A DNA stretch of 64,000 bases from an uncultured Eubacteriales bacterium (GTDB lineage Bacteria > Bacillota > Clostridia > Peptostreptococcales > JAAYPU01). The notes beneath the pieces are model-generated. The model saw only the letters and a program-made list of their open reading frames with translations. It had not been told where the DNA came from and did not search any database. Where the stretch lies: contig CAZKKX010000001.1 of the NCBI GenBank assembly GCA_964553505.1, forward strand, positions 2,243 to 66,242, read 5' to 3'. The translations under genes and the position numbers were made by a program. Of the stretch, positions 7,287 through 52,650 are shown piece after piece. Numbering within the stretch: the stretch's first letter is position 1; each line of letters opens with the position of its first letter.

Positions 7287-7315
7287 GAGAAAAGCCCTGA
7301 AACAGGGCTTTTCTC
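7287..7315. terminator. Bidirectional rho-independent terminator between the convergent MCP and symporter genes
   Basis: 13-bp perfect stem GAGAAAAGCCCTG / CAGGGCTTTTCTC with a 3-nt loop, flanked by A/T runs. Confidence 0.85.
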
Positions 7316-8799: not shown

Positions 8800-8864
8800 A
8801 AAGGTTTCCTCCTTACAATTTATCCTTGTTTTTTGCAATTAAATATCAGCTTTAATTGGCTTTA

Positions 8865-9134
8865 TTAAGCTTTCTCTTCTTCGTTTAAATCAATTTCTAC
8901 AAAGAATTTTTTTACCATGACAAGCACCGCAGTAGAAATCACAAGCCAGCCTAAAATACAACTAAAGAAAAACCAGCTTGGCAATCCCATAATGTAAGTA
9001 AAATTGCCTGGATCTCCTCCGCTTAGTCCGTAACCGAAAGCATACCACCAAATGAAAAATATAGCATATAAACATAATGTCAATAATGCTTCTTTATTTA
9101 GCTGACGATTTTTTTCCTTTTCGGACATTTTCAT
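8865..9134 (-). CDS. yhdT: YhdT/DUF997 family small membrane protein
   Basis: 89 aa with two TM helices (LCLYAIFFIWWYAFGY; WFFFSCILGWLVISTAVLVMV). Position directly upstream of an SSS symporter. Confidence 0.65.
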   Translation of the reverse strand: MKMSEKEKNRQLNKEALLTLCLYAIFFIWWYAFGYGLSGGDPGNFTYIMGLPSWFFFSCILGWLVISTAVLVMVKKFFVEIDLNEEEKA

Positions 9135-9314: not shown

Positions 9315-10532
9315 TTATTTCTCATTAAGATAAAGCATGGCTGTCAAGGCATATATTTTTGTTGTTTCAACAAGCTCATCAATCTCAACAAATTCATCGG
9401 CTTGATGCGGTATCAGTCTGTCTCCGGCACCGGTAGTGATAACCGGAATACCTCTTAGAGAATGTAAAAAAGTACCGTCGGTAGCACCGGGAACACCATT
9501 ATAAACAGGCTCTTTTCCTGTTACTCCCGTATAGGCCTCTGCCATTGCTTGTACAACTGGCTCTTCAGGTGATGTTTCTGTCCAAGGTCTTTCTTCTATA
9601 ACTTCCATTTCTGCTTTAAATTCTTTATCTTCACGACCCAATTTATCCAATATATCTTGAATCTGTTGTTTCAAAGTCTCATGATTCTGTCCCGGAACCG
9701 TTCTTATGTCCAGAGTAGTGTAACATTCTTTAGGGATTACATTAATCTGTGCCTCCCCTTTGGAAGGAGCCATAAGAATCGTAGGCGTTATACTGGGATA
9801 CCCCAAGTAGTGATGTTTCCCAAGGCGATCTTTTTCGGACATTTCCAGTTTTTCAAGTTCACATATTATCTTTGCCATACGCCAGTTTGGGTTAATCCCT
9901 GAAAGAGGCATCGCTCCATGAGCCATTTTACCAAAGGTCCGTATAATAATTCTCATTGCACCTTTCTGATTGATACATAGCTGATTTTCTTCGGGTTCAC
10001 AAATAACTGCAGCGTCCACATTATCTGCCCAGCCGTTTTTGATAAATGATTTAATACCAATCATCATGCCTTCTTCGTCTACCGGAATGCATAATACTAT
10101 TCTACCCTTAAACTCTGCTTTTGATTCTAAAATTGATTTAACTGCAAAAATTGCCGCCGCAACATTCCCCTTAGTATCACAGGCTCCTCTTGCATAGATC
10201 TTTCCATTTTCAATAGTTGCTTCAAAGGGGTCATAATGCCATTCATCTAAATCCCCTGCTGTAACCACATCTGTATGCCCTTCAAACAAAAGGGTTTTCC
10301 CCTTTTCTTTACCTTCTATTATTCCAATTACATTAGGTCTTTTAGGTGCTGCTTCATCAATATGTACTTCTATACCTAATTTCTTCAAATAATCTGCAAT
10401 AAAATATGCTGCCTTTTCTTCGGTGTGTCCCTCTTTATCAGGATCATAAACACTTTTTATCCTTAAAATTTTTTGAGTAAAGTCCACCAGTTCTTTTTCA
10501 TTTACATGTTCAATCACATTATTATATTTCAT
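9315..10532 (-). CDS. M20 family metallopeptidase (ArgE/DapE/PepV-like amidohydrolase)
   Basis: Motifs LLFEGHTDVV, ARGACDTKGN and EPEENQ are typical of M20 dimetal hydrolases. Start at ATG 10532 behind AGGAGA. Confidence 0.8.
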   Translation of the reverse strand: MKYNNVIEHVNEKELVDFTQKILRIKSVYDPDKEGHTEEKAAYFIADYLKKLGIEVHIDEAAPKRPNVIGIIEGKEKGKTLLFEGHTDVVTAGDLDEWHYDPFEATIENGKIYARGACDTKGNVAAAIFAVKSILESKAEFKGRIVLCIPVDEEGMMIGIKSFIKNGWADNVDAAVICEPEENQLCINQKGAMRIIIRTFGKMAHGAMPLSGINPNWRMAKIICELEKLEMSEKDRLGKHHYLGYPSITPTILMAPSKGEAQINVIPKECYTTLDIRTVPGQNHETLKQQIQDILDKLGREDKEFKAEMEVIEERPWTETSPEEPVVQAMAEAYTGVTGKEPVYNGVPGATDGTFLHSLRGIPVITTGAGDRLIPHQADEFVEIDELVETTKIYALTAMLYLNEK

Positions 10533-10692
10533 TTTTAATCTCCTACACCTTAAATCTTCAATTAGCATTAACTAAACTAAACAAGGATTTCTCCTTAGCA
10601 GATCCATTGGTTAAAACTTCATTTATAGGCGTGTTATTATTTAATAATTTCTGCTTATATTTTCTATTCCTCGAAAAGAATTGCTTTAACCT

Positions 10693-10737
10693 TTAAGTTT
10701 CAATGTTTCGAAACTTTTGAAATATCTTCTTTTTCAT
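10693..10737 (-). CDS. 14-codon upstream mini-ORF (MKKKIFQKFRNIET) in the leader of the M20 gene
   Basis: Strong RBS GGAGGTGG 7 nt before the ATG. It lies between a sigma-A-like promoter (TTTACA-N16-TGgTATAAT on the minus strand, around 10825-10855) and the M20 start. Confidence 0.3.
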   Translation of the reverse strand: MKKKIFQKFRNIET

Positions 10738-11003
10738 AAATAAACCACCTCCAAAAATATTGTGTTTTTCAAACCTTTTATGTTTCGCATTGCAAAACAA
10801 TGTTTTGGATTTTAATTTGAATTTATTATACCATGTTTTACAGTTATGTAAAATAATTCTTTCAAGCTATATTTCCAAAAAATTTAGTTATTAAAAATTA
10901 TATAGCCTTTTTATGTTCTATTTTACTATTTTGCGTTTTTTGCTTTATAATTATAATATGATTCGAATGATTATTTTTCTATAATTAATATGAAGGTGAT
11001 AAT

Positions 11004-12728
11004 ATGGAAAGTTATAATTATAAAAATGTGTTGGAATCCATTAACGATGCTGTTATCATAATCAATAAAAGTAAAAAAATAATATTTTTAAATGCCTCTG
11101 CAAAAAAACTGATAAAAGCGGCGTCCCGAAATGTCAACGATTTATATATCGAAAATGTTCTGCCAGGATCAAAAATTCCTGCTGTGCTAAAAAGTGGTCG
11201 GTCAGAAATACATAATAAAATGGCATTGGATAAAATAACGGTTATTGCAAATCATATGCCAATTTTTAATAATTCCGGACAAATAAACGGTGTGGCTTCT
11301 GTCTTTCGAGATATAACTGAAACCGACGAACTGAGTGAAGAAATTACTAAGCTAAAAGAAGTTCAGGCCATGCTTGAATCCATAATAGAATCTACCCAAG
11401 ACGCCATTTCGGTCGCTAATGAAAAAGGCATCAATATTATGGTCAATCATGCCTATACACTGCTTTCCGGCCTGAAAAAAGAAGAAATCATAGGGAAAAG
11501 TGTCACCGTAGATATCTCCGAGGGAGAAAGTATTCATTTAAAAGTTTTAAAAACAAAAAAACCGGTTAAAAACGCCAGGTTAAAATTAGCGCCTTTTAAT
11601 AAGGATATTATTGTTAATGCCGCTCCCATTATTGTTAATAACCGTCTTAGGGGCAGCGTTGCCGTTATACATGATGTAACTGAGATACAAAGACTTACAC
11701 AAGAATTAAATGCAGCAAAAGAAATGATTCGAAAAATTACCGGTAAGTATACCTTTAAAGATATTATCGGACAAGACAGTCAGATGAAGCTTGCCAAAGA
11801 AAAAGCAAAGAAAGCGGCAGTAACTCCGGCAACTGTTTTGCTGATTGGAGAAAGCGGAACAGGAAAAGAGTTGTTTGCTCATGCCATACACAATGAAAGT
11901 AATAAGAAATATAAAAAATTGGTTCGAATCAATTGTGCCGCTATTCCCGAAGCGCTTTTAGAAAGTGAATTATTTGGATATGAAGAAGGGGCTTTTACAG
12001 GAGCTAAAAAAGGCGGAAGACTCGGACTATTTGAACAAGCAAATGGCGGTACGATATTTTTAGATGAAATCGGTAAAATGAGCCTAAATACCCAAGCAAA
12101 GCTCTTACGAGTTTTGCAGGAAAAAGAAATTATTAAAGTAGGAGGCGGAGATGCCGTAAAAATTGATGTAAGAGTCATTGCGGCAACCAACGAGGATCTT
12201 GAAGAACAAGTGCAGACCGGGCTCTTTAGAGAAGATTTATACTACAGACTAAATGTTATTCCTATCTTTATACCACCCTTAAAATACCGGAAAAAGGATA
12301 TTCCTCTGCTGTCAAAAAACATAATACAGAAGTTTAATATCGAATACGGAAGATTTGTAAAGGATTTGTCAAGTGAAGCTATAAACATTATGTCCAATAT
12401 GGAATGGAAAGGAAATATTCGAGAATTGGAAAACTTCATCGGTCGTGCCATGATTGAGATGACTATTGATGAAGATATTATTGAAAAAAAACATTTGCCC
12501 ATTGAAAAATCAAAAATTACCGCACAGTCGGACACCGAATTGTATACACCGGAAGAAACAAGTGAAACAAAGAAATTAGAAGACATACTAAATGATATAG
12601 AAAAGAAATATATCGCAGACACTTTGAAAAAAAATAATTATAATAAAACAAAAACTGCCCGACAATTAGGTTTATCTATAAGAAACCTTTATTATAAAAT
12701 TGAAAAATATCATTTAGACAAAAATTAA
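11004..12728 (+). CDS. Sigma-54-dependent transcriptional activator (PAS-PAS-AAA+-Fis HTH)
   Basis: Walker A GESGTGKE, sigma-54 contact loop GAFTGA, ESELFGYEEGAFTGA, a C-terminal HTH (KTKTARQLGLSIRNLYYKI) and two N-terminal PAS-like regions. Confidence 0.92.
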   Translation: MESYNYKNVLESINDAVIIINKSKKIIFLNASAKKLIKAASRNVNDLYIENVLPGSKIPAVLKSGRSEIHNKMALDKITVIANHMPIFNNSGQINGVASVFRDITETDELSEEITKLKEVQAMLESIIESTQDAISVANEKGINIMVNHAYTLLSGLKKEEIIGKSVTVDISEGESIHLKVLKTKKPVKNARLKLAPFNKDIIVNAAPIIVNNRLRGSVAVIHDVTEIQRLTQELNAAKEMIRKITGKYTFKDIIGQDSQMKLAKEKAKKAAVTPATVLLIGESGTGKELFAHAIHNESNKKYKKLVRINCAAIPEALLESELFGYEEGAFTGAKKGGRLGLFEQANGGTIFLDEIGKMSLNTQAKLLRVLQEKEIIKVGGGDAVKIDVRVIAATNEDLEEQVQTGLFREDLYYRLNVIPIFIPPLKYRKKDIPLLSKNIIQKFNIEYGRFVKDLSSEAINIMSNMEWKGNIRELENFIGRAMIEMTIDEDIIEKKHLPIEKSKITAQSDTELYTPEETSETKKLEDILNDIEKKYIADTLKKNNYNKTKTARQLGLSIRNLYYKIEKYHLDKN

Positions 12729-12748: not shown

Positions 12749-12812
12749 ATGCAATATTTTTCATGGCTGTAAAATGTTTTGCAAAATATTGCATGCATTT
12801 TTTTGCATGATT
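12749..12812 (+). promoter_or_regulatory. Putative enhancer (UAS) for the sigma-54 activator
   Basis: Inverted repeat ATGCAATATTTT (12749-12760) / AAAATATTGCAT (12783-12794), followed by further TGCAT/TTGCAT repeats. Located about 70-130 bp upstream of the -24/-12 element. Confidence 0.5.
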
Positions 12813-12878: not shown

Positions 12879-12894
12879 TGGCACATCTCTTGCT
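12879..12894 (+). promoter_or_regulatory. Sigma-54 (-24/-12) promoter TGGCAC-N5-TTGCT
   Basis: Exact TGGCACATCTCTTGCT with canonical GG/GC spacing, 43 nt upstream of the buk ATG and just downstream of the activator gene. Confidence 0.85.
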
Positions 12895-12936: not shown

Positions 12937-14013
12937 ATGAAAAAAGCTTATAAAATACTTGTAATTAACCCTGGTTCTACCTCAACGAAAATCGCTGTTT
13001 TTTCAAATACAGAGTGTATTATGGAAAATACTATTAGACATAATACTGATGAGTTAGCCCAATATAATTTAATTTCAGACCAGTTTTCTTTTAGGAAGAA
13101 ACTTATAGAGCAGTTTTTGGAATCTAATAATATTTCTTTGTCCTCCTTCGATGCAGTTGTAGGAAGAGGCGGTTTACTCAAACCCTTGCCGGGGGGAACT
13201 TATTGCATAAATGAAAAAATGGTCCATGATCTGACCATCGGCGTTCAGGGACAGCACGCTTCAAATCTCGGCGGCATTATTGCAAAAAAAATTGGCGATG
13301 AAATTCACAAGCCGGCTTACATCGTAGATCCGGTAGTTGTAGATGAAATGGATGAAATAGCTCGGATAACCGGTATCCCTGAAATTAAAAGAAGTAGCAT
13401 TTTTCATGCCTTAAATCAAAAAGCAGTTGCAAGAAGTGTTTCAAAACAATTATCAAAAAAGTATGACGATCTTAATTTAATTGTTGCTCACTTGGGTGGA
13501 GGAATTTCAATAGGTGCCCATAAGAAAGGTCGCGTTATAGATGTTAATAATGCGTTGGAAGGTGATGGTCCTTTTACTCCTGAAAGAGCCGGGGAGATTC
13601 CTGGTGAAAAGCTAATCAAAATGTTCGTTTATGGAAACTATTCCATAAACGACATGATGAAAAAACTTGTAGGCGATAGTGGCTTGGTAGCACACCTGGG
13701 AACAAATAATGCAATAGAAGTCGGAAATATGATTGACAGCGGCAATAAAGATGCTGCTCTCATTTATAAATCAATGGCTTATCAAGTTGCCAAGGAAATA
13801 GGGAGTTGCGCTGCAGTCCTAAAAGGTTCTGTGGATGCCATTATTATCACTGGCGGAATGGCTAATGATTCACGTTTTACTGAGTGGATAGAAGAATATA
13901 TATCCTTTATCGGTAAAATTTTTGTCATCCCTGGAGAAAATGAAATGTTAGCACTGGCAGAAGGTACTCTCAGAATTTTACGAGGAGAAGAAGATGTAAA
14001 AGAATACGCATAG
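12937..14013 (+). CDS. buk: Butyrate (branched-chain acyl) kinase
   Basis: MKKAYKILVINPGSTSTKIAVF... is a typical Buk N-terminus. Start at ATG 12937 behind AAGGAG. The longer ORF-track start at 12841 would overlap the sigma-54 promoter. Confidence 0.9.
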   Translation: MKKAYKILVINPGSTSTKIAVFSNTECIMENTIRHNTDELAQYNLISDQFSFRKKLIEQFLESNNISLSSFDAVVGRGGLLKPLPGGTYCINEKMVHDLTIGVQGQHASNLGGIIAKKIGDEIHKPAYIVDPVVVDEMDEIARITGIPEIKRSSIFHALNQKAVARSVSKQLSKKYDDLNLIVAHLGGGISIGAHKKGRVIDVNNALEGDGPFTPERAGEIPGEKLIKMFVYGNYSINDMMKKLVGDSGLVAHLGTNNAIEVGNMIDSGNKDAALIYKSMAYQVAKEIGSCAAVLKGSVDAIIITGGMANDSRFTEWIEEYISFIGKIFVIPGENEMLALAEGTLRILRGEEDVKEYA

Positions 14014-14036: not shown

Positions 14037-14258
14037 ATGGCAAAGGGAAAAATTGTTTTTGAAGAAGAACGTTGCAAAGGCTGCGAATTATGTATCTCCG
14101 TATGCCCAGCAGCTATTCTGAGCTTAAAGGAAGATGTAATAAATTCAAAAGGTTTTCATCCGGCATATGTAGTTAATGAAGAAAAGTGTACAGGTTGCAG
14201 TAATTGTGCTGCCATTTGCCCGGACGTAGTTATTACAGTTCATCGAATTGACAAATGA
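14037..14258 (+). CDS. 2x[4Fe-4S] ferredoxin, delta subunit of 2-oxoacid:ferredoxin oxidoreductase
   Basis: Two CxxCxxCxxxCP motifs (CKGCELCISVCP, CTGCSNCAAICP) in 73 aa. It precedes the alpha, beta and gamma subunits. Confidence 0.85.
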   Translation: MAKGKIVFEEERCKGCELCISVCPAAILSLKEDVINSKGFHPAYVVNEEKCTGCSNCAAICPDVVITVHRIDK

Positions 14259-14337
14259 ATAGCTGCTCCGGACTTCTCTGAACTATTACGGACTACAATC
14301 TATAATCCATAATCTATAAAATAAGGGAGTGATTTAT

Positions 14338-15399
14338 TTGAAAAAAACTTTAATGAAAGGGAATGAAGCCTTTGCTGCTGCTGCAATAAAAGGCGGTTGT
14401 AAATACTTTTTTGGTTATCCCATTACTCCGCAAAATGAACTTCCTGAATATATGTCACGAGAACTGCCCAAAGCAGGAGGTTGCTTTTTACAAGCAGAAA
14501 GCGAAATCGCCGCCATCAATATGGTGTACGGCGCGGCGTGTGCCGGCGCCAGAGTTTTGACATCTTCATCTTCGCCTGGTATTGCTTTGAAGCAGGAAGG
14601 AATTTCATTTCTTGCTTCTGCTGAATTACCCTGTGTTATTATAAATGTATCCAGAGCAGGTCCCGGAATCGGAGGAATTCAGCCTGGTCAAGCCGACTAT
14701 TATCAAAGCACCCGCGGAGGCGGTAACGGTGATTATCAGGTTATCGTATATGCCCCGGCTTCTGTACAAGAAGCAGTTGAACTAACAACGGATGCTTTTG
14801 AAACAGCAGATTATTACAGAAATCCTGTTATGATTCTGGGGGATGGAATGATAGGTCAAATGATGGAACCTGTAGAACTGAGAGAGCCAAAAAAAAGAAA
14901 CTTATCTCCTAAAAAGTGGGCATTAACCGGCACTAAAGGACTACGTTCCAATAATACAATCAAATCTTTGGCTCTGGAGCCGGATGACCTGGAAAAAGTA
15001 AACTTAAAACTGAAAGAAAAATACGATATGATTCGAAAAAATGAAGTTAGGTATGAATCTTTTAACCTTGAAGATGCGGAAATCGTTTTCGTGGCTTATG
15101 GAACAGTTTCCAGAATAGTCAAAGCCGTTATTGAAGAGCTGTCCTTGCAGAATATCAAAGCAGGTCTAATAAGACCTATTACATTATGGCCTTTTCCATA
15201 TGAAGCTTTTGAAAGTCTTAGCACTAAAACGAAATGTGTTATGAGCATAGAAATGAGTCTTGGACAAATGGTAGATGACGTAAGAATAGCAGTAAACGGT
15301 AGCGTCCCTGTAGACTTTTACGGGCGTTCCGGCGGAAATATTCCTTCTCCTGAAACAATTATTCAAAAAGCAAAAAAAATTTTAGGAGGTGCAGAATGA
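14338..15399 (+). CDS. 2-oxoacid:ferredoxin oxidoreductase alpha subunit (VorB/KorA-like)
   Basis: KGNEAFAAAAIKGGCKYFFGYPITPQNE is typical of the OFOR alpha subunit. Probable TTG start at 14338, 8 nt after GGGAG; the ORF track starts at GTG 14329. Confidence 0.88.
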   Translation: MKKTLMKGNEAFAAAAIKGGCKYFFGYPITPQNELPEYMSRELPKAGGCFLQAESEIAAINMVYGAACAGARVLTSSSSPGIALKQEGISFLASAELPCVIINVSRAGPGIGGIQPGQADYYQSTRGGGNGDYQVIVYAPASVQEAVELTTDAFETADYYRNPVMILGDGMIGQMMEPVELREPKKRNLSPKKWALTGTKGLRSNNTIKSLALEPDDLEKVNLKLKEKYDMIRKNEVRYESFNLEDAEIVFVAYGTVSRIVKAVIEELSLQNIKAGLIRPITLWPFPYEAFESLSTKTKCVMSIEMSLGQMVDDVRIAVNGSVPVDFYGRSGGNIPSPETIIQKAKKILGGAE

Positions 15400-16145
15400 T
15401 GGCTGTTATTTTTAAAAAAAGCAAAGGATTAACAGATACGGAGCAGCATTACTGCCCGGGTTGTACTCATGGAATTACCCACAGATTGGCTGCAGAAGCC
15501 TTGGAAGAATTAGGAGTATTGGACAGAGCCATAGGTGTTTCTCCTGTTGGTTGCAGTATCCTGGCACATAAATACTTTGCCATTGATATGTGCGAGGCAG
15601 CTCATGGTCGCGCACCTGCTGTTGCAACGGGCATCAAAAGAGTTCAGTCGAATAGTGTTACCTTTACTTATCAGGGTGACGGTGATTTAGCTTCTATCGG
15701 TACTGCTGAAATCGTACATGCAGCGCATAGAGCAGAAAAAATCACAACAATTTTTATAAATAATGCTATTTACGGTATGACAGGCGGTCAAATGGCGCCT
15801 ACAACCTTGGCTGGCCAGATTGCTACTACCGCTCCAAATGGAAGAGATCCAAATCATTGTGGTTTCCCTTTAAGAGTATCGGAAATGCTTGCTACCATAG
15901 ATGGTGCTGTTTTTGTGGAACGCGTTTCCGTAGACAATCCTGCTAATATACGAAAAGCAAAAAAAGCCATTAAAAAGGCTTTTGAAGTTCAATTATCAGG
16001 ACTTGGGTTTTCATTTGTTGAAGTATTATCCACTTGTCCCACCAACTGGGGTATGGACCCTGTTGATTCTTTGGAATGGCTGAGAGAAAATATGATTCCT
16101 TATTATCCATTAGGAAATTTTAAATCCCCAAAGGAGGTCAAATAG
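15396..16145 (+). CDS. 2-oxoacid:ferredoxin oxidoreductase beta subunit (TPP-binding)
   Basis: CPGCTHG and GDGD...NN TPP-binding motifs. The start overlaps the alpha stop (ATGA). Confidence 0.9.
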   Translation: MMAVIFKKSKGLTDTEQHYCPGCTHGITHRLAAEALEELGVLDRAIGVSPVGCSILAHKYFAIDMCEAAHGRAPAVATGIKRVQSNSVTFTYQGDGDLASIGTAEIVHAAHRAEKITTIFINNAIYGMTGGQMAPTTLAGQIATTAPNGRDPNHCGFPLRVSEMLATIDGAVFVERVSVDNPANIRKAKKAIKKAFEVQLSGLGFSFVEVLSTCPTNWGMDPVDSLEWLRENMIPYYPLGNFKSPKEVK

Positions 16146-16146
16146 A

Positions 16147-16689
16147 ATGACAACTCACAAATATATTATTTCAGGTTTTGGAGGACAGGGCGTTATGTCA
16201 ATGGGGATGATGCTGGCCTATGCCGGAATGCTTGAAGACAAAGAAGTTACATGGCTTCCGTCTTATGGTCCTGAAATGCGCGGCGGAACTGCAAATTGCA
16301 GTGTTGTCATTTCTGATAAACCTGTTAGTTCACCGGTTGTAACAAAAGCGACATCTGTCATTACAATGAATTTGCCCTCCCTTATAAAGTTTCAGGATAA
16401 TTTAAAAGAAGGCGGAAATTTATTTATCAACAGTTCCCTAATCGACGAAAAAGCTTCGAGAAAAGATGTTCATGCGTATTACATCACGGCCAATGATATG
16501 GCTTTAGTGCTGGGAAACGATAAAACATCAAACATGATCATGTTAGGTGCCGTTCTTTCTAAAACCGCAACAGTAAGTCTTAAATCTGTTGAAAAAGTCT
16601 TAGAAAAACTGTTTAAAAATAAGCAGAACCTGATTCCCCTAAATATTAAGGCATTAAATCTGGGATATGAAACACAAATGGTTCTTTAG
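16147..16689 (+). CDS. 2-oxoacid:ferredoxin oxidoreductase gamma subunit
   Basis: ISGFGGQGV...SYGPEMRGGTANC is the gamma-subunit signature. The gap to the beta subunit is 1 nt. Confidence 0.9.
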   Translation: MTTHKYIISGFGGQGVMSMGMMLAYAGMLEDKEVTWLPSYGPEMRGGTANCSVVISDKPVSSPVVTKATSVITMNLPSLIKFQDNLKEGGNLFINSSLIDEKASRKDVHAYYITANDMALVLGNDKTSNMIMLGAVLSKTATVSLKSVEKVLEKLFKNKQNLIPLNIKALNLGYETQMVL

Positions 16690-16702: not shown

Positions 16703-16746
16703 AAACATAACAAGGTAAAAAGAATATCATTTACCTTGTTATGTTT
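16703..16746. terminator. Bidirectional terminator between the convergent sigma-54 operon and panE
   Basis: Perfect 17-bp stem AAACATAACAAGGTAAA (16703-16719) / TTTACCTTGTTATGTTT (16730-16746) with a 10-nt loop. Confidence 0.85.
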
Positions 16747-16761
16747 AGGGAAATATATGGT

Positions 16762-17685
16762 TCAAATATTATATGTTTTTTCTTTTATTAACACTAATTG
16801 TGTCAATACTTTATTTATTGGCGTTTGAATTTGCTCTTTTTCCGCTTCTCTGACAATAGCCCCATTGATCATTTCAATCTCTGTTTTGCGATGATTCATT
16901 ACATCCTGAAGCATAGACGATCGATTGGCTGCCGTAGCCTTGCAAACTTCTTTAGTATGCTCTACCGCATCCTCCGTTGACAATTTGATTCTTTTTGAAT
17001 CGGCAACCTTTACAGCTTCTTTCACGGCTTCTTCTAAAATCCACTTTGTTTCGGGAAATTCAGTTAACTGTCCGTTATTCAATCCTGTAATAGCTGTTAG
17101 TGCATTTATTCCAACATTCACTAATAATTTATCCCATATCAATCCCATGATATTGTCGGAAACTATCGCTTCTATTCCAGCTTTCTCTAATATTTTTATA
17201 ACCAATTGTATTCTTTGAGTTTTTGAACCGTCTAATTCACCTATTATGGTTTTTCCCTTTCCTGCATGTTTAATTTTTCCCGGACCCATCAGTGTGGAAC
17301 CATGAGCTGTTGTTCCTGCAATAATATTTGCATATTCTATAACCCGTTGAATTTTCTCGATATTCCCTAATCCGTTTTGAAGAGTTAAAATGATTGTATC
17401 TTTTCCTATCAGGGCTTTGTTCTGAGAAATTGCAACATCTGTAATTGTCGATTTGACAAAAACCAACACCAGTTGAACATTTCCCACTTCTTTGGAATCT
17501 GCCGTCGCTTTGATGTTTTTGATAGCTCGGTTACCACTAAGTCCCTCAATCCAAAGACCATCCTTGTTAATTGCATCAACGTGCTCTTTAAATACATCAA
17601 TGAGCCACACTTCATTACCTGCTTCCGCAAGTAGCCCGCCGTACAAGCTGCCCATTGCTCCTGCTCCTAAAACAGCAATTTTCAT
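16762..17685 (-). CDS. panE: 2-dehydropantoate 2-reductase
   Basis: MKIAVLGAGAMGSLYGGLLAEAG Rossmann N-terminus and overall ApbA/PanE length. Adjacent to panB. Confidence 0.85.
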   Translation of the reverse strand: MKIAVLGAGAMGSLYGGLLAEAGNEVWLIDVFKEHVDAINKDGLWIEGLSGNRAIKNIKATADSKEVGNVQLVLVFVKSTITDVAISQNKALIGKDTIILTLQNGLGNIEKIQRVIEYANIIAGTTAHGSTLMGPGKIKHAGKGKTIIGELDGSKTQRIQLVIKILEKAGIEAIVSDNIMGLIWDKLLVNVGINALTAITGLNNGQLTEFPETKWILEEAVKEAVKVADSKRIKLSTEDAVEHTKEVCKATAANRSSMLQDVMNHRKTEIEMINGAIVREAEKEQIQTPINKVLTQLVLIKEKTYNI

Positions 17686-17720
17686 CTTGTTCTCCTCCAG
17701 TATAATTCCCTTCTCCTTTG

Positions 17721-18554
17721 TTAATATAATCTTTTCAGTTCCTCTTCTTTAATACCGCCAAACACATGTTTTTCCTCAGGAAATTTTTCTTTTCGGATGT
17801 CCTCTTTAAATGCTTCTAAGCCTTTAATAATTTCAGGCGCCAAATTAAGATATTGTTTTACAAACTTAGGTGTAAATTTTTCAAACAATCCAAACATATC
17901 ATGGAAAACCAATACCTGTCCATCACAATACCGACCGCCGCCAATGCCGATAGTGGGAATTGATACTTTAGTAGTAATAAGTTTTCCAAGTTGCTCCGGG
18001 ATAGCTTCAAGTATCAAACTGGTCGCTCCTGCTTCCTGCAATAGCAATGCATCTTTTAGAACCGTCTCGGCTGCTTCTTCTCCTTTTCCTTGCACTTTAA
18101 AGCCTCCAAGCTTGGATACGGTTTGTGGCGTAAGACCAATATGTCCCATTACAGGGATGCCTGCATCAACAATTGCTTTAACCGTATCGGCCATTTCTTT
18201 TCCACCTTCAAGCTTAATGATATCACAACCGCCTTCCTTCATTAGACGATTTGCATTGGAAACGGCTTGTTCTTTGGATACATTATATGAACCAAACGGC
18301 ATATCTCCTACAATCATAGGATTAGGAGCTCCTTTTACTACCGGTCGAATATGATGTATCATATCCTCCATTGTACACGGAACGGTAGAATCATTTCCTA
18401 AAACCGTCATAGAAAGAGAATCACCAACCAGAATAATTTCTATTCCCGCTTTATCTACCATGAAGGCTGTGGGATAATCATAAGCAGTTGTCATGCTTAT
18501 TTTTATACCCTGATCTTTCATTTCCTGTAACTTTTGTGTCGTTATTTTTGCCAT
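17721..18554 (-). CDS. panB: 3-methyl-2-oxobutanoate hydroxymethyltransferase
   Basis: KISMTTAYDYPTA...ILVGDSLSMTVLG...GDMPFGSY are typical PanB motifs. Confidence 0.93.
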   Translation of the reverse strand: MAKITTQKLQEMKDQGIKISMTTAYDYPTAFMVDKAGIEIILVGDSLSMTVLGNDSTVPCTMEDMIHHIRPVVKGAPNPMIVGDMPFGSYNVSKEQAVSNANRLMKEGGCDIIKLEGGKEMADTVKAIVDAGIPVMGHIGLTPQTVSKLGGFKVQGKGEEAAETVLKDALLLQEAGATSLILEAIPEQLGKLITTKVSIPTIGIGGGRYCDGQVLVFHDMFGLFEKFTPKFVKQYLNLAPEIIKGLEAFKEDIRKEKFPEEKHVFGGIKEEELKRLY

Positions 18555-18577
18555 TATATTTTCCTCCTTGTATATAA

Positions 18578-19351
18578 TTAATTATGGCTGTAACCAAATT
18601 CTTTTGATAGGCTTGCGGCTGTTGTCCTAATCAGGTTTCCGTAACCAATATTTTTTTCGCCTTCGTCATATCGGTATTTCGGAACAGCAATACTGATTGC
18701 TGCGATAACTTCACCATAGTAATTAAATACCGGCGCAGCTATGCATTTAAGCCCTTCCACATACTCCTCATCGTCCAGACAGTAGCCCTTTTCTCGTATC
18801 CTTACAAACTGTTTGAACAATAATTTCTTATCTGATACGGTTTTGTTCGTATGTTTAACAAATTCTACATTTTCCAACATTTTAAGTGCTTTATCTTCCG
18901 GCATGAAAGCAAGCATCGCTTTCCCAAGTCCGGTACAATAAGCAGGAAGCCTTTTTCCTATATTCAAATCTACCTTTATGGTTGCAGGACTTTCGATTTT
19001 ATCAATATAGATAATATCTCTATCATACATTACGGCAATATTTACCGTTTCATTAGTAATCCTTGCAACCTGTTCCAAATAAGGCTGTGCCAGACGTCTT
19101 AATCCCAGCCTCTCTATCACATTGTTTCCCATCTCAAACAATTTAAAGCTATTGGAATATTTATTATTAGATATATTCTGAACCACATATTTTTTTTCTT
19201 TTAATGTACTTATAATCCGATGGACTGTACTTTTATCCATTTTTAACGCTTCGCTGATTTCTGTGATTCCCAATTCCCGTCTTTTATCTAAAAGCTCTAA
19301 AATATCAAAAGCCTTCACAATTGATTTAACGGTATTTGTTCTCTCATTCAT
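18578..19351 (-). CDS. IclR family transcriptional regulator
   Basis: N-terminal winged HTH (VKAFDILELL...LGITEISEALKMDKSTVHRII) and a C-terminal IclR effector domain. 257 aa. Confidence 0.85.
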   Translation of the reverse strand: MNERTNTVKSIVKAFDILELLDKRRELGITEISEALKMDKSTVHRIISTLKEKKYVVQNISNNKYSNSFKLFEMGNNVIERLGLRRLAQPYLEQVARITNETVNIAVMYDRDIIYIDKIESPATIKVDLNIGKRLPAYCTGLGKAMLAFMPEDKALKMLENVEFVKHTNKTVSDKKLLFKQFVRIREKGYCLDDEEYVEGLKCIAAPVFNYYGEVIAAISIAVPKYRYDEGEKNIGYGNLIRTTAASLSKEFGYSHN

Positions 19352-19377
19352 AATATATATTCTCCTGATATTATTTT

Positions 19378-20229
19378 TTATAACTTAAGCCTTGTGGCTC
19401 CTTTTAAATAAACAAACCAATAAGCAACTGCAACGAAAAAACCCCCTCCTATGATATTTCCTAATGTAACAGGTATAAGATTATTTATTATAAAGGTCTG
19501 CCAATTCAACCCTGCTAAAGTCTCGGCAGATAAATCTGCTGTTTCTACCAATGCCGGATACGCTTTTGCCATTATTCCCGCCGGAATATAATACATGTTT
19601 GCAACACTATGCTCAAACCCTGATGTAACAAAAAGCAATATCGGAAAAAACATACCTAATATTTTACCTGTTACATCTTTTGCGCTATAAGCTATCCAAA
19701 CTCCTAGACACACAAGCCAATTACACATTATTCCAAGGAAAACTGCAGGCATAAAAGAAAGGCTTGTTTTATATGCTGCTATCTTAATGGTCACTGCACC
19801 TAACATATTATCACCGCTGCTGAGCAGCCCTGATTGAACCATCATAAAAGCAATCAATAACGAACCGATAAAATTTCCTGCATATACAAAGAACCAATTA
19901 GAAAGCATGCTTCTTAGTTTTACCCTTTTTTCCAACACGCTTATAATAATTAAGGAATTTCCGGTAAATAGCTCTCCTCCGGCTATCAGAACTAACATCA
20001 ACCCTGCACCAAATATAGAACCAGCTAATACTTTTCCTAATCCATAAGTATCACTCCTTGCAAACAGATTAAAGGCTGCCATATTAGAAGCTTCGGCTGC
20101 AAACGCAACAAAAGCACCTGCCAGTATACCTAATATCAATTGGTCTCTAAGAGAGATCCTTACTTTTTTTATACCTGTTTCTACAACGCTTTTTGTTATC
20201 TCTTCCGGTGTTAAAAAATTAGATTCCAT
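19378..20229 (-). CDS. Formate/nitrite transporter family channel (FocA-like)
   Basis: 283 aa, six-TM FNT pattern with GGELFTGN and the FEHSVANM signature. Confidence 0.88.
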   Translation of the reverse strand: MESNFLTPEEITKSVVETGIKKVRISLRDQLILGILAGAFVAFAAEASNMAAFNLFARSDTYGLGKVLAGSIFGAGLMLVLIAGGELFTGNSLIIISVLEKRVKLRSMLSNWFFVYAGNFIGSLLIAFMMVQSGLLSSGDNMLGAVTIKIAAYKTSLSFMPAVFLGIMCNWLVCLGVWIAYSAKDVTGKILGMFFPILLFVTSGFEHSVANMYYIPAGIMAKAYPALVETADLSAETLAGLNWQTFIINNLIPVTLGNIIGGGFFVAVAYWFVYLKGATRLKL

Positions 20230-20270
20230 TGTTTTCCTCTCTTCGGTATATCAACCCTTAAAGCTTATGT

Positions 20271-21116
20271 TTAAGTATTTTTTCTAACTGCATCCAATAC
20301 GTGTCTTAGGAGTACAGTACTGGTCACAGTGCCAACACCCCTCGGCACAGGTGTAATAGCGGATACTATTTCCTTTACTTCATCAAAATTGACATCTCCA
20401 CACATTTCAGAATCAAGATAATTGATACCTACATCGATAATTACTGATTTGCTGTTAAAGTATTCTTTTCCAAATATTTTTGCTTTTCCTGCCCCTGTAA
20501 TGACAATATCTGCCGTCGAAGCTTCTTTCGACAAATCGACTGTTTTCGAATGACATATCTCAACTGTAGCATTTTCTTCAAGAAACATCATTGCAAGGGG
20601 TTTTCCTAAAACCAAGCTTCTATTAATAATAACTATTTTTGCACCTTTCCTTTGAATGTTGTAATACCTCAGTATTTCGATTACGGCTTCAGGTGTACAA
20701 GGTAAAAAACCGTCTTGTGATCCTTCAAATACTTTTTGTAGATTAACAGGATTCATGCAGTCTATATCCTTTTTCGGGTCTATCAAAGCCTGTATGATAT
20801 CCACATCTAATTGTTCCGGAAGCGGTCTAAATATTAGTATTCCGTGAATCTCATTATCCTCATTAACCATTTTCACAAGATTCGTAAAATCTTTCATGGA
20901 AATATCCTTTTTAGCTTCATAAACAACCGGCTTAATTCCTATAAGCTCACAGTTTTTTATAATAGATTGTTCATATGCAATATCATCTTCCCTGCTACCA
21001 ACACGAATAATCGCCATTGTAGGAAATATTCCTCTGTTTTGGAATTCCTCAACATCCATTTTCATTTTTGTTTTCATTTTTTCTACAACGGGTTTTCCGT
21101 AAAGAATTTGGGGCAT
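20271..21116 (-). CDS. folD: Bifunctional 5,10-methylene-THF dehydrogenase / 5,10-methenyl-THF cyclohydrolase
   Basis: Typical FolD length and motifs (GFLPCTP, INRSLVLGKPLAMM, TPVPRGVGTVT). Confidence 0.93.
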   Translation of the reverse strand: MPQILYGKPVVEKMKTKMKMDVEEFQNRGIFPTMAIIRVGSREDDIAYEQSIIKNCELIGIKPVVYEAKKDISMKDFTNLVKMVNEDNEIHGILIFRPLPEQLDVDIIQALIDPKKDIDCMNPVNLQKVFEGSQDGFLPCTPEAVIEILRYYNIQRKGAKIVIINRSLVLGKPLAMMFLEENATVEICHSKTVDLSKEASTADIVITGAGKAKIFGKEYFNSKSVIIDVGINYLDSEMCGDVNFDEVKEIVSAITPVPRGVGTVTSTVLLRHVLDAVRKNT

Positions 21117-21117
21117 T

Positions 21118-21747
21118 TTATGTCCTCCTTAATGATTGTTCAATTTTATCGTAAATCTGATCGGCTTTTTCTAATCCTGTTTTTTCGATTTCGCTCAACT
21201 GTGTTAAAACTTTTCCCTTAAGCTTTTCATCCTTCATTATGGCCGTATTGATTAAGACATTTAGCTTTGCTCCCTGAAGGGCCGCCTTACATAAAATAAC
21301 TCCGGCACCTACATCGCTTATAGCTATTCGTGTGCCTTTTAAGGCATATGCCTCATGTAAATCAATAGCCTCTTTGCATACTTCTGCAATTCTGAGAGGT
21401 ACTAATGTAGCGTCCACCAAAGCTTTTTGCAAGGCAATCTCTTTATCCGCTTTTTCTTCTTCTGTCTCCGACGGAAGAGAATAAGCCTTCGATAAAGGAT
21501 AAAAAGCATCCGCATCCTTCTCTACCAACTGGTTCAATGTTTGTATAATATCGGTAGACTTTTCTATAAGACTTTTTATATCTTTTTCAACAGATTTGTA
21601 CTTCTTTTTCCCAAGAGTTAAGTTCCCTACCATACTACCCAGTGCCATCCCCAAAGATCCGGCATAAGCACTGGCTCCTCCTCCTCCGGGAACAGGTTTT
21701 TCAGAAGCAAGTAATTCAACAAATTCCTTACATGTTTTATCCAACAT
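21118..21747 (-). CDS. fchA: Cyclodeaminase/cyclohydrolase family protein (FchA-like methenyl-THF cyclohydrolase)
   Basis: FVELLASEKPVPGGGGASAYAGSLGMALGSMV is the FTCD_C/FchA signature. It lies between fhs and folD. Confidence 0.8.
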   Translation of the reverse strand: MLDKTCKEFVELLASEKPVPGGGGASAYAGSLGMALGSMVGNLTLGKKKYKSVEKDIKSLIEKSTDIIQTLNQLVEKDADAFYPLSKAYSLPSETEEEKADKEIALQKALVDATLVPLRIAEVCKEAIDLHEAYALKGTRIAISDVGAGVILCKAALQGAKLNVLINTAIMKDEKLKGKVLTQLSEIEKTGLEKADQIYDKIEQSLRRT

Positions 21748-21789
21748 TATGATACTCCTTTGTAGAGATTAGAAATTATTAATTCTAAA

Positions 21790-23469
21790 CTAAAATAGTC
21801 CTGTTATAAGACCTTTGTTATCTACATCTATTTTTTCCGCTGCAGGAATTTTAGGAAGCCCGGGCATTGTCATTATATCTCCTGTTAATGCCACTATAAA
21901 TCCTGCGCCTGCGGAAACCTTTACATTTCTTATGGTAATTCTAAAATCCTTTGGCCTTCCCAGTTTTTTGGGATCATCCGATAACGAATATTGGGTTTTT
22001 GCCATACAAATAGGAAGTCTTGTATATCTCAACCTCTCAAGCTCTTCTATCTGTTTAATACTTTGACCTATATAATCGACACCTTTTGCCCCATAAATCT
22101 TAGTAGCAATCTTTTCTATTTTTTCTTTTATTCCTACATCATCCGAATAAGCAAAGCTGAAATTATTATCTCCATTTTCGATGAGGTTCAATACTTCTTT
22201 TGCCAACGCTTTGCCGCCTTCTCCGCCTTTCTCCCAGACTTCGGAAAGTGCTACATTAACACCTAATGCTTTACACTTCTTCTCAATAAATTCCAATTCC
22301 TTTTCCGTATCCGAAGGGAATTTGTTTATTGCCACAACTGCCGGAATCCCAAAATTTTTCGTAACATTTTCAACATGTTTAATAAGATTTGGTATACCAC
22401 CTTCAAGGGACTCAACATCTTCTTTATTTAACTCAGTTTTAGGACAACCGCCATGATGCTTTAATGCCCGAACAGTTGCTACTATTACTACTGCATTCGG
22501 CTTTAAACCGCTTAAACGACACTTAATATCTACAAATTTTTCAGCGCCCAAATCTGCTCCAAAACCTGCTTCTGTAACCACATAATCGCCCAACTTTAAG
22601 GCCATTTTTGTAGCCATAACACTATTACAACCATGTGCTATATTTGCAAATGGTCCACCATGAATAAATGTAGGCGTATGTTCTAATGTTTGTACAAGAT
22701 TAGGCTTTAACGCATCTTTCAATAATGCGGCTGCCGCACCCTGTGCGTTTATATCTCCTGCTGTCACCGGCTCCCCTTCTCTGGAATAAGCAATCACCAT
22801 TTTAGCCAATCTATCCTTCAAATCATCCAAATTATTGGAAAGACATAATACCGCCATAACTTCAGAAGCAACTGTAATATCAAAACCATCCTCTCTTGGC
22901 GTTCCGTTGGCTTTTCCACCAAGACCGTTGACTATGAACCTTAGCTGCCGATCATTCATATCTATTGCTCTTTTCCACATGATTCTTCTCACATCAACGT
23001 TCAGAGAATTTCCCTGATGTATATGATTATCCAACATTGCGGCAATAAGATTATTTGCCGCACCTATGGCATGTAGATCTCCGGTAAAATGTAAATTAAT
23101 ATCTTCCATAGGAACAACTTGTGAGTAACCGCCTCCTGCCGCACCTCCCTTAATACCAAAAACAGGGCCAAGGGAAGGTTCTCTTAATGCAATAATTGCT
23201 TTTTTGTCAAGTCTGCTTAGTGCATCTCCAAGACCTACGGTCGTAGTAGTTTTCCCCTCTCCTGCGGGAGTCGGATTAATAGCGGTAACCAATATCAGCT
23301 TCCCGTCTTTAACATCGTCTATTTCTGATAATAAATTATAATCAATTTTTGCTTTATACTTTCCATAATTTTCTATAAAGTCTTCTTTGATATTAATTTT
23401 GTTCGCAACATGATTAATTAACTCTTTTTTTGATTCCTGAGCAATCTCAATATCTGTTTTGAATTTCAT
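21790..23469 (-). CDS. fhs: Formate--tetrahydrofolate ligase
   Basis: 559 aa. [18 protein letters not shown]-loop and conserved FTHFS sequence throughout. Confidence 0.96.
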
Positions 23470-23517
23470 AAGCTCCTCCTGATTTCGTATTGTAAAACTA
23501 TGTTTTGCATATTAAAA

Positions 23518-23546
23518 ATCTTATCAACTTTTTGACTATTTGTCAA
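23518..23546 (-). promoter_or_regulatory. Sigma-A-type promoter of the fhs cluster (TTGACA-N17-TAAGAT)
   Basis: On the minus strand: TTGACA (23546-23541), a 17-nt spacer, then TAAGAT (23523-23518). About 45 nt upstream of the fhs ATG. Confidence 0.65.
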
Positions 23547-24849: not shown

Positions 24850-24890
24850 TACAAATAACAAAGCCAAGCTTCATATTGAAACTTGGCTTT
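24850..24890 (-). terminator. Hairpin terminator downstream of tRNA-Lys
   Basis: AAAGCCAAG (24860-24868) / CTTGGCTTT (24882-24890), 9-bp stem. On the minus strand it is followed by GTTATTTGT. Confidence 0.6.
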
Positions 24891-24894
24891 GTTT

Positions 24895-24970
24895 TGGTAC
24901 CCCATATGCGGCTCGAACGCATGACACCCTGATTAAGAGTCAGGTGCTCTTCCAGCTGAGCTAATGGGGC
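24895..24970 (-). tRNA. tRNA-Lys (anticodon CTT), CCA-encoded
   Basis: Reverse complement GCCCCATTAGCTCAGCTGGAAGAGCACCTGACTCTTAATCAGGGTGTCATGCGTTCGAGCCGCATATGGGGTACCA folds as a cloverleaf: D stem GCTC/GAGC, anticodon stem CCTGA/TCAGG with loop CTCTTAA, T stem ATGCG/CGCAT with loop TTCGAGC. The first acceptor pair is G1-U72. Confidence 0.93.
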
Positions 24971-25080: not shown

Positions 25081-25755
25081 TTATACCATCATCCATTTTT
25101 CTCTCATAATCATTTGGATGATAAAGAGCTCTCCCTTTATTTTCAGGGGAATATCCTTTGATATCTTTTCAATACAGCAGGTATACTTAACCGGTACTTT
25201 GAGATAATTGCTCAGTTCCGTAGCAAGGCAATCACCCTTCATAATATCTTCTACTGATGTATTTTGCAACATATGTGTATTATTTATTAAACCGGTTACT
25301 TTTACTCCCATTTCTGTTTCAATGCTTTGAAGGTAAACCAGTGTTTTTTTTAAGGTATCGGTTTCCGGTCTGTTGGCATTCACAACAAAAAACAAGTCAT
25401 AGGCATCTTTGGTAAAAAATTTCTTATACCGTGCCAGCGCTCTTGTTCCTACGGCATCACCTCCAACATCCAAAATAACCTGCCGATCCGGATTTTGTAA
25501 TGGTGCATTTATGTTGGCCGAAAGAGACGGCAGCTCTGCTGTAATATCCTTTCCAAAACTGTTACTTATTAATTCTATTCCGTGGGATTTTAGCAAATTC
25601 TTCTTTTCCCTGGTTCGAAAATATGGATTTACGATATCTAAATCGATAATCGAAACTTTATCGCTTTCTTCACTAAGTTTTAAAGCATAATTAACAGCAA
25701 ATTCTGTCTTCCCGCTTCCGTAATGTCCTACAATAATTCTTATTCTTTTATCCAT
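25081..25755 (-). CDS. P-loop NTPase (MinD/ParA/CbiA-like SIMIBI class), function unknown
   Basis: Walker A GHYGSGKT at the N-terminus, DLDIVNPYF and ILDVGGD (Walker B-like). 224 aa, no TM segment. Confidence 0.65.
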   Translation of the reverse strand: MDKRIRIIVGHYGSGKTEFAVNYALKLSEESDKVSIIDLDIVNPYFRTREKKNLLKSHGIELISNSFGKDITAELPSLSANINAPLQNPDRQVILDVGGDAVGTRALARYKKFFTKDAYDLFFVVNANRPETDTLKKTLVYLQSIETEMGVKVTGLINNTHMLQNTSVEDIMKGDCLATELSNYLKVPVKYTCCIEKISKDIPLKIKGELFIIQMIMREKWMMV

Positions 25756-52631: not shown

Positions 52632-52650
52632 AAACGATGGGAGTGAATTG

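Follow-up and report, generated by a model that had tools for sequence, protein, structure and literature searches.

A candidate three-operon gene island for anaerobic, ATP-yielding breakdown of pantothenate or pantoate in an uncultured Eubacteriales bacterium

We analysed a 64,000-nucleotide stretch of DNA (the window) from an uncultured Eubacteriales bacterium (GenBank assembly GCA_964553505.1, contig CAZKKX010000001.1, positions 2,243 to 66,242 of the forward strand), which carries a unit of seven genes, fhs to panE, that brings together genes for the metabolism of tetrahydrofolate (THF)-bound one-carbon (C1) units and of pantoate. Our analyses suggest that this unit, together with a nearby M20-DUF997-panF operon and an abutting buk-vor operon, probably forms an island of three operons through which an anaerobe would gain ATP by breaking down pantothenate (vitamin B5) or only the pantoate half of it. 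This reading follows from the co-occurrence of an importer, an amide hydrolase, two ATP-forming kinases/ligases, a formate channel, a keto-acid oxidoreductase and an IclR-family regulator. PanF, an ArgE/DapE-type deacylase, a butyrate kinase and 3-methyl-2-oxobutanoate:ferredoxin oxidoreductase (VOR) are all encoded within 9.5 kb, and the substrate in the name of the VOR model is exactly the product of PanB cleavage. Besides the window, the analysis covered a neighbourhood survey of the 80 genome loci (numbered with L below) that hold the nearest PanB relatives, comprising 83 PanB genes, in which the open reading frames (ORFs) were clustered and a 10-kb flank was taken per locus.

Mapping of the ORFs showed that the seven genes all lie on the minus strand, in the order fhs-fchA-folD-FNT-iclR-panB-panE, and span 16762-23469. 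The first, fhs (21790-23469), encodes formate-tetrahydrofolate ligase (PF01268, 905 bits; NF010030, 933 bits against a cut-off of 652). It is followed by an fchA-like gene for a methenyl-THF cyclohydrolase with an FTCD_C domain (21118-21747; PF04961, 217 bits), the product of which scores 193 with the NCBIfam FchA equivalog, under the cut-off of 275, and by folD (20271-21116) for methylene-THF dehydrogenase/cyclohydrolase, in which both Pfam domains were matched. Encoded contiguously, Fhs, the FchA-like protein and FolD make up a complete module for formate/THF C1 interconversion. Next come the gene for a FocA-like channel of the FNT family (19378-20229; PF01226, 278 bits), which passed the fnt subfamily model and scores 244 with the FocA equivalog, under its cut-off of 290, and iclR (18578-19351), whose product contains the HTH_IclR (PF09339) and IclR_C (PF01614) domains and falls outside every curated equivalog, its best model being KdgR at 232 bits, under the cut-off of 275. 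The unit closes with a panB paralogue, encoding ketopantoate hydroxymethyltransferase (17721-18554; TIGR00222, 342 bits against a cut-off of 208; PF02548, 385 bits), and with the gene for a PanE-type 2-dehydropantoate reductase (16762-17685; TIGR00745, 281 bits against a cut-off of 141). An earlier note on this DNA had named the same seven minus-strand genes, and the ORFs and family models agree with it.

The architecture of the unit is likewise as that note had described it. The gaps between the genes are short (42, 1, 41, 26, 23 and 35 nt) and free of hairpins, no fold in them being better than those of shuffled controls (best −5.7 kcal/mol, z −1.5). Upstream of fhs lies a σA-type promoter (23518-23546, minus strand; TTGACA-17-TAAGAT with an upstream TG, 10 of 12 matches), and both its −35 and its −10 are kept in the closest relative, L007. 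At the other end stands a strong intrinsic terminator hairpin, bidirectional and common to panE and vor-gamma (16703-16746; 17 bp, −20 kcal/mol, z −7.0), which none of 200 shuffles equalled; the convergent vor gene ends at 16689. The gene upstream of the unit has a separate hairpin. Weak promoter-like matches inside the unit carry little weight, because the count for the region as a whole is 55 against the 36.6 expected in shuffles. From these signals, a single transcript running from fhs to panE is plausible. A 15-bp perfect palindrome over the fhs −35 (TTGACAAATAGTCAA, 23532-23546) was considered as an operator and dropped: it is not kept in L007, it was found 5 times with one mismatch allowed against 1.6 expected, which is near chance, and it is probably incidental. 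When the whole window was searched with Rfam at gathering thresholds for riboswitches and other known RNAs, only a tRNA (24898-24970) was returned.

The second operon, M20-DUF997-panF, is also encoded on the minus strand and has the best promoter match of the region (10825-10852; TTTACA-16-TGgTATAAT, 11 of 12 matches), which is kept in L007. Its first gene encodes an M20 deacylase of the ArgE/DapE type (9315-10532), a candidate pantothenate amidohydrolase that matched only the generic ArgE/DapE subfamily model; the ORF extends to 10568, and an ATG near 10532 is the likely start. The genes that follow encode a small DUF997 (YhdT-like) membrane protein (8865-9134), a companion of PanF that is present in 10 loci, and the sodium/pantothenate symporter PanF itself (7339-8838; TIGR02119, 647 bits against a cut-off of 328), which is the PanF-like symporter that the earlier note had placed 8 kb away. 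A bidirectional terminator with a 13-bp stem, including 7 GC pairs, lies 3′ of panF (7287-7315). In a reverse check that started from the M20 protein and covered metagenomes, orthologues with at least 52% identity adjoined PanF and/or PanB-PanE and/or S58 peptidase genes, whereas relatives of at most 32% identity had none of the three alongside. The leader of this operon, about 250 nt long, also contains a 14-codon mini-ORF with a strong ribosome-binding site (10692-10736, minus strand), which reads MKKKIFQKFRNIET in the window and MRKRILRKFQELKI in L007 (approximately 18600-18645, plus strand), at equal length and position, and further downstream a 20-nt block, ACACGCCTATAAATGAAGTT, that is identical in the two. 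The mini-ORF may be a leader peptide or an attenuator; the leader folds no better than shuffles (z −1.27).

The third operon lies on the plus strand downstream of panE and converges on it. It encodes an acyl kinase of the butyrate kinase family (12937-14013; TIGR02707, 533 bits against a cut-off of 289) and the VOR subunits, vorD-A-B-G (14037-16689), with the delta ferredoxin at 14037-14258, alpha at 14329-15399, beta at 15396-16145 and gamma at 16147-16689. The alpha subunit is the vor chain that passes the VorB model (NF005507, 550 bits against a cut-off of 399). Both a −24/−12 promoter and its cognate enhancer-binding protein are present: the σ54 promoter before buk-vor, TGGCACatctcTTGCT (TGGCAC-N5-TTGCT; 12879-12894, plus strand), is the sole zero-mismatch match in the window, and the adjacent gene (11004-12728, plus strand) encodes a σ54 enhancer-binding protein with Sigma54_activat, HTH_8 and PAS domains, which is PrdR-like, under the cut-off of that model. 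No σ54 promoter within one mismatch is suitably positioned at the fhs…panE or M20-panF operons. Elsewhere these modules are joined more closely, the VOR array running on the same strand as panE/M20 in L012, L013, L016, L027 and L035, and Buk opening the pan/fhs operon of L010. About 80 nt upstream of the σ54 promoter (approximately 12780-12810) there is a palindrome, TGCAAAATATTGCA, a candidate for the putative binding site of the adjacent PAS-domain activator. A further gene, hyp224, stands immediately 5′ of vorD in L012, L013, L016, L027 and L035, and in the window 8 kb off, past the tRNA (25081-25755, minus strand). It encodes a 224-residue P-loop protein with a GSGKT motif, which has weak ParA/NUBPL-type and CbiA matches and no NCBIfam match, and which may help VOR to mature or supply it with Fe-S clusters.

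The fhs…panE and M20-panF operons have in common a 25-nt operator-like element. One copy, CAAAACATAGTTTTACAATACGAAA, lies in the fhs leader (23483-23507, minus strand) and is a candidate IclR site; the second, CAAAACATTGTTTTGCAATGCGAAA, lies in the M20/PanF leader (10783-10807, minus strand). Each follows the −10 and precedes the first ribosome-binding site of its leader, both are conserved in L007, and they are identical to one another at 22 of 25 positions. The 64 kb hold no third copy within three mismatches of a degenerate pattern, and shuffles gave no match; because the pattern was derived from these two sites themselves, the informative observations are the 22/25 identity and the matching position rather than the zero mismatches. 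A weight matrix built from nine sites and applied at a threshold of at least 14 bits gave 32 matches in the 80 loci and the window, compared to 5 in shuffled DNA. Strong matches precede the leading gene of equivalent clusters by no more than 250 nt, and related copies were found upstream of clusters like that of the window in 10 other loci. Loci outside the training set also have sites, the element preceding Buk-Fhs… in L010, PanB-M20-PanF-Fhs-FolD in L011, Fhs in L013 and L016, and iclR in L008 and L018. Its core consists of CGAAA/TTTCG half-sites. Since IclR is the only regulator that recurs in the clusters (within 6 kb of 18 of the 83 PanB genes), the IclR protein is the likely binder of the element. 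With this leader element common to the M20/PanF operon and with the buk-vor operon abutting, the seven-gene boundaries drawn in the earlier note are probably too narrow.

The survey places this arrangement in a wider set. The PanB of the window is 95% identical to that of a metagenome-assembled genome named Anaerovorax odorimutans, which marks the source of the window as closely related to that species, and the gene order of the window is also found on nine metagenome contigs. Carriers of the cluster include the cultured strains Tissierella praeacuta DSM 18095, Clostridium aciditolerans DSM 17425 and Anoxynatronum buryatiense Su22, and among complete genomes CP121688.1 and NZ_CP133264.1. Within 6 kb of the 83 PanB genes, we found PanE in 48 cases, a transporter (PanF, TRAP, OPT, Dpp-type ABC or ECF S-component) in 33, a hydrolase (M20, Amidohydro_3 or S58) in 32, C1 genes (Fhs, FchA or FolD) in 16, VOR in 8 and PanC in 8. 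The linkage of fhs-fchA-folD to panB, to which the earlier note had drawn attention, is no oddity of one strain, the 16 cases coming from several lineages. The context of the window itself, which we call type A, consists of PanB-PanE with one or more amidohydrolases and importers, often with IclR, VOR and Fhs/FchA/FolD, with or without FNT. Its amidohydrolases are M20 (21 loci), S58 (21 loci) and Amidohydro_3 (9 loci), and its importers PanF (13 loci), OPT (12 loci) and TRAP (8 loci), plus Dpp-type ABC systems and ECF S-components; VOR is present in 8 type A loci. Several type A loci are arrays on one strand: Fhs-FchA-FolD-FNT-(IclR)-PanB-PanE-M20-hyp224-VORdabg in L012, L013 and L016, Buk-Fhs-FolD-FNT-IclR-PanB-PanE-M20 in L010, Fhs-FNT-IclR-PanB-PanE-M20-DUF997-PanF in L008, PanB-M20-DUF997-PanF-Fhs-FolD in L011 and PanB-PanE-M20-PanF in L075. 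The variation in gene order between lineages argues for selection on co-location and not for inherited synteny, and the hydrolase and importer steps show non-orthologous replacement across loci.

A second context, type B, has the order DUF2520-PanB-PanC-PanD, with PanC and PanD confirmed by Pfam, and is found in 8 loci with PanB identities of at most 55%. PanC occurs in 8 of the 80 loci and PanD in 5, all of them in a separate PanB clade. In a neighbor-joining tree the PanC- and DUF2520-linked PanBs form a clade of their own, and the PanB of the window lies deep in a Firmicutes clade in which every member has a type A or an Fhs-only context. Neither PanC nor PanD was found in any surveyed locus of this latter clade, and, as the earlier note had stated, both are absent from the 64-kb window (best tblastn E value 0.037). 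The only loci that combine PanC with a hydrolase are two from Dehalococcoidia, and in these the neighbour is S58.

The survey also revealed variants. Two divergent PanB paralogues lie inside one TRAP/PanE cluster in L064 (7946-10830) and in L081 (1654-7450), a gene for an IlvD/EDD-family dehydratase adjoins PanB/PanE in L064 and L080, and L034 has two short-chain dehydrogenases; these clusters may be variants for related dihydroxy acids. Beside the deltaproteobacterial PanE-PanB pairs there are no genes for valine or isobutyryl-CoA degradation, the flanks past the Dpp/M20/S58 core consisting of unrelated housekeeping genes. A TRAP cluster that binds pantoate and D-erythronate is reported in reviews (PMC5812351, PMC11668362). 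For the TRAP binding protein encoded beside PanB-PanE in L034, the closest PDB entries are 4PDH, 4P9K/4PAK, 4NQ8 and 4PDD. These entries are probably members of that cluster, and the pantoate-binding TRAP structures are said to come from Vetting and colleagues in 2015. On this assignment, the TRAP neighbour in L034 is a side line of support for pantoate import.

Each step of the following pathway, and with it the direction of flux, is a proposal drawn from the families of the proteins and the setting of their genes. PanF and its DUF997 partner would import pantothenate, which the M20 deacylase would hydrolyse to (R)-pantoate and β-alanine. PanE, working in reverse in the role of a pantoate dehydrogenase, would produce 2-dehydropantoate, and PanB, also in reverse, would transfer the hydroxymethyl group of this compound onto THF, giving 3-methyl-2-oxobutanoate and 5,10-methylene-THF. 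FolD and FchA would convert the latter, by oxidation and hydrolysis, to 10-formyl-THF, from which Fhs in reverse would form formate and ATP, the formate leaving through the FNT channel. From the oxo acid, VOR would form isobutyryl-CoA and CO2 with reduction of ferredoxin, and the acyl kinase, a proposed isobutyrate kinase, would yield isobutyrate and a second ATP, for which a phosphotransacylase not present in the window would be required. The balance would be pantoate + 2 H2O → isobutyrate + formate + CO2 + 3 [2H], with 2 ATP. As to control, the embedded IclR protein would probably repress the fhs…panE and M20-panF promoters via the 25-nt element until released by substrate, and the buk-vor operon would be driven separately by σ54 and the PAS-domain activator. 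The individual parts have precedents. Fhs generates ATP in purine fermentation and in other fermentations that release C1 units, branched-chain keto acids are known to yield ATP by way of VOR, ptb and buk, and the PanB reaction was reportedly found to be reversible by Powers and Snell in 1976. A catabolic role would explain every conserved partner, the exchanges of hydrolase and importer, and the name of the VOR model.

Several points weigh against this role. The direction of flux is not readable from sequence. The equilibrium of PanE-type reductases lies strongly on the side of pantoate, so that its oxidation would have to be pulled by the downstream steps. Three pairs of reducing equivalents require a sink, the β-alanine half has no visible fate, and pantothenate is scarce in most habitats. 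For the phosphotransacylase (ptb), there was no PTA_PTB match among the scanned window ORFs of at least 120 aa, although its gene may lie in another part of the genome. In L011 and L016 the element is present with no iclR within 10 kb; furthermore, co-regulation of a vitamin importer with synthesis genes is common, and the shared element alone is no proof of catabolism. In Oscillospiraceae a backbone of HgdC-like activase, ACT, DUF711, YebC, Fhs, FchA, FolD, PanB and his genes (L029, L038, L039, L044 and L051) is found without PanE, hydrolase, VOR or the element, and L012, L013 and L016 consist of this backbone with FNT-IclR and PanE-M20-hyp224-VOR inserted. Lastly, some of the hydrolases could be suppliers of β-alanine, S58 being found beside DUF2520-PanB-PanC in the two Dehalococcoidia loci, L071 and L074. 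There the S58 peptidase (DmpA/BapA-like) gene lies directly upstream of the biosynthetic genes; in catabolic-type clusters S58 is the commonest hydrolase, usually with an OPT transporter.

Three other explanations were weighed. The earlier note had read the locus as running from formate in to pantoate out: formate would enter through FNT, Fhs/FchA/FolD would carry it to methylene-THF, and PanB and PanE would make pantoate. On such a model PanC would be encoded elsewhere and IclR would tune the supply. The enzyme identities fit such a biosynthetic role and all of the reactions are reversible. The five Oscillospiraceae loci with Fhs-FchA-FolD-PanB have none of the catabolic-looking partners, and the pairing of an importer with synthesis genes, frequent in vitamin regulons, would explain the shared element. 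We nevertheless regard biosynthesis as unlikely. Apart from the absence of PanC and PanD from the window and from every surveyed locus of its PanB clade, it leaves unexplained why an M20 deacylase is joined to PanF under the same element and why Amidohydro_3, TRAP and OPT partners recur. A formate channel with Fhs, FchA and FolD would be out of proportion to a trace metabolite, and it would be a mere coincidence that VOR and buk are adjacent and that in other genomes they share operons with pan genes. An importer, an amide hydrolase, two ATP-forming enzymes and a keto-acid oxidoreductase, with no PanC or PanD, indicate that the direction given in the earlier note is probably reversed. Of its interpretation, the gene identities, the operon-like architecture and the conservation stand, and the direction and the boundaries probably do not.

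Alternatively, the locus could be catabolic with a different substrate for PanF and M20, such as free pantoate, pantolactone, pantetheine, CoA debris or another N-pantoyl or N-acyl amide. This possibility draws on the diversity of the clusters, in which transporters (TRAP, OPT, Dpp, ECF) and hydrolases (M20, Amidohydro_3, S58) vary and additional enzymes occur (the short-chain dehydrogenases of L034 and the IlvD/EDD-type dehydratase of L064 and L080). Substrates such as free pantoate, pantetheine or other N-pantoyl amides are quite conceivable above all where TRAP and PanB-PanE occur with no hydrolase, and the five loci of this kind (L025, L055, L062, L068 and L072) fit free pantoate; the M20 protein of the window matches a generic subfamily model only. 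For the window, however, the importer scores far above the PanF equivalog cut-off and is accompanied by DUF997, as is typical of panF, its operon also includes the M20 gene, and pantothenate is the simplest N-pantoyl amide, all of which makes another substrate improbable here.

Least probable, and to our minds very unlikely although coherent, is anabolic scavenging, in which Buk would activate isobutyrate, VOR would carboxylate it reductively to 2-oxoisovalerate, formate-derived C1 units and reduction would give pantoate, and M20, S58 or Amidohydro_3 enzymes would release β-alanine for a distal PanC: VOR-type reductive carboxylation of isobutyrate is known in anaerobes, the M20 and Amidohydro families include β-alanine-forming enzymes, the missing PanD calls for another β-alanine source and S58 stands beside DUF2520-PanB-PanC in L071 and L074, but the route would cost 2 ATP and three reductant pairs per pantoate although valine metabolism already gives oxoisovalerate, the PanF score points to pantothenate import, which would make synthesis redundant, PanC is never in the cluster across about 46 independent arrangements, and the TRAP binding proteins, if assigned as above, resemble pantoate binders, which implies uptake of the end product.

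Several known systems come close to parts of the proposed island. Canonical pantothenate biosynthesis clusters (panBCD, panBCE), seen in the survey as DUF2520-panB-panC-panD in L070 and L083-L086, share the PanB and PanE families with the window, and their PanC-linked PanBs are 52-55% identical to the window PanB and presumably catalyse the same reaction. The window differs from them in lacking PanC and PanD, in the clade of its PanB and in the proposed reverse direction, and its pan genes have as partners an importer, an amide hydrolase, VOR, an acyl kinase, Fhs/FchA/FolD, an FNT channel and IclR, unlike the canonical clusters. Because PanC and PanD are not found in the window or in the surveyed loci of its PanB clade, the locus does not belong to the family of pantothenate biosynthesis operons, and we rate it as a probable catabolic gene island made of known families.

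To our knowledge, the aerobic Pseudomonas pathway, said to have been worked out by Goodhue and Snell (1966), Nurmikko (1966) and Airas (1979), is the only described route of pantothenate degradation. It employs pantothenase (EC 3.5.1.22), pantoate 4-dehydrogenase, aldopantoate dehydrogenase and dimethylmalate dehydrogenase. Like the route proposed here, it begins with hydrolysis to pantoate and β-alanine and yields 2-oxoisovalerate. In Pseudomonas, however, C4 is oxidised and lost as CO2 via dimethylmalate, whereas in the proposed route it would become a THF-bound C1 unit that yields ATP and formate. Because the gene and protein of the Pseudomonas pantothenase were still reported to be unidentified in 2023 (PMC10393543), no sequence comparison with this enzyme is possible.

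The remaining modules also have counterparts. In purine/glycine fermentation (Gottschalkia/Clostridium acidurici) and dichloromethane fermentation (Dehalobacterium formicoaceticum), FolD, FchA and Fhs likewise lead to formate and ATP, and the formate is excreted; the C1 donor proposed for the window, ketopantoate acting via PanB, differs, and no description of ketopantoate as a catabolic C1 donor was found in the searched literature. The branched-chain oxo-acid module (ptb and buk together with either VOR or BKDH, as in the ptb-buk-bkd genes of Enterococcus faecalis) has an oxo-acid oxidoreductase and an acyl kinase in common with the window, which differs in having no adjacent ptb, in its σ54 promoter and in the physical joining of the module to pan genes. 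In domain architecture the IclR protein is like the IclR repressors of catabolic operons (KdgR, PcaR/PobR, AllR), and in the window palindromic, A/T-rich half-sites (CGAAA/TTTCG), a candidate operator, overlap the promoter-proximal leader. Full-text literature searches returned no paper on anaerobic catabolism of pantothenate or pantoate or on a pan-fhs cluster, and the combination of these known modules around a reversed PanB/PanE is absent from the searched literature.

Some features of the window lie outside the island. The tRNA gene (24898-24970, minus strand; Rfam, 61.9 bits) stands between hyp224 and a Fer4_16/QueG-like gene and is followed by a 17-bp terminator hairpin (24857-24893). 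A replication-origin region occupies 40866-63525, the fhs…panE locus being about 27 kb from dnaA-dnaN-recF-gyrBA. Its minus strand encodes parB-parA-noc-like genes, rsmG, mnmG, mnmE, jag and yidC, and its plus strand dnaA (50000), dnaN, recF, gyrB and gyrA. Between dnaN and recF lies a lysine-2,3-aminomutase-like radical SAM gene (52648-53904), an unusual placement.

Taken together, and with only a little more confidence than doubt, we propose that strict anaerobes from a number of phyla, among them Anaerovoracaceae, Clostridiaceae, Oscillospiraceae, Tissierellales and Desulfobacterales, carry out a previously undescribed, energy-yielding fermentation or oxidation of vitamin B5. In these organisms a dedicated catabolic clade of PanB and PanE would run backwards, the hydroxymethyl carbon would be converted to formate with formation of ATP, the M20 enzyme (elsewhere Amidohydro_3 or S58) would be the missing pantothenase, and PanB/PanE would be false markers of prototrophy. 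Should the catabolic reading prove wrong, the locus would still join C1 metabolism to that of pantoate in an unusually conserved way, and its IclR regulon would be definable. If it is right, the island would be the first genetic basis for pantothenate degradation and would supply testable candidate genes for pantothenase, which has been known as an activity from the 1960s on and which as a protein was still reported to be unidentified in 2023 (PMC10393543). Ketopantoate, as a C1 donor, would be a new feed into the THF pool for ATP synthesis. Genome-based predictions of auxotrophy would misread panB and panE without panC as biosynthesis genes, and vitamin B5 would be eaten in anoxic communities such as those of guts, digesters and sediments, which bears on models of vitamin cross-feeding.

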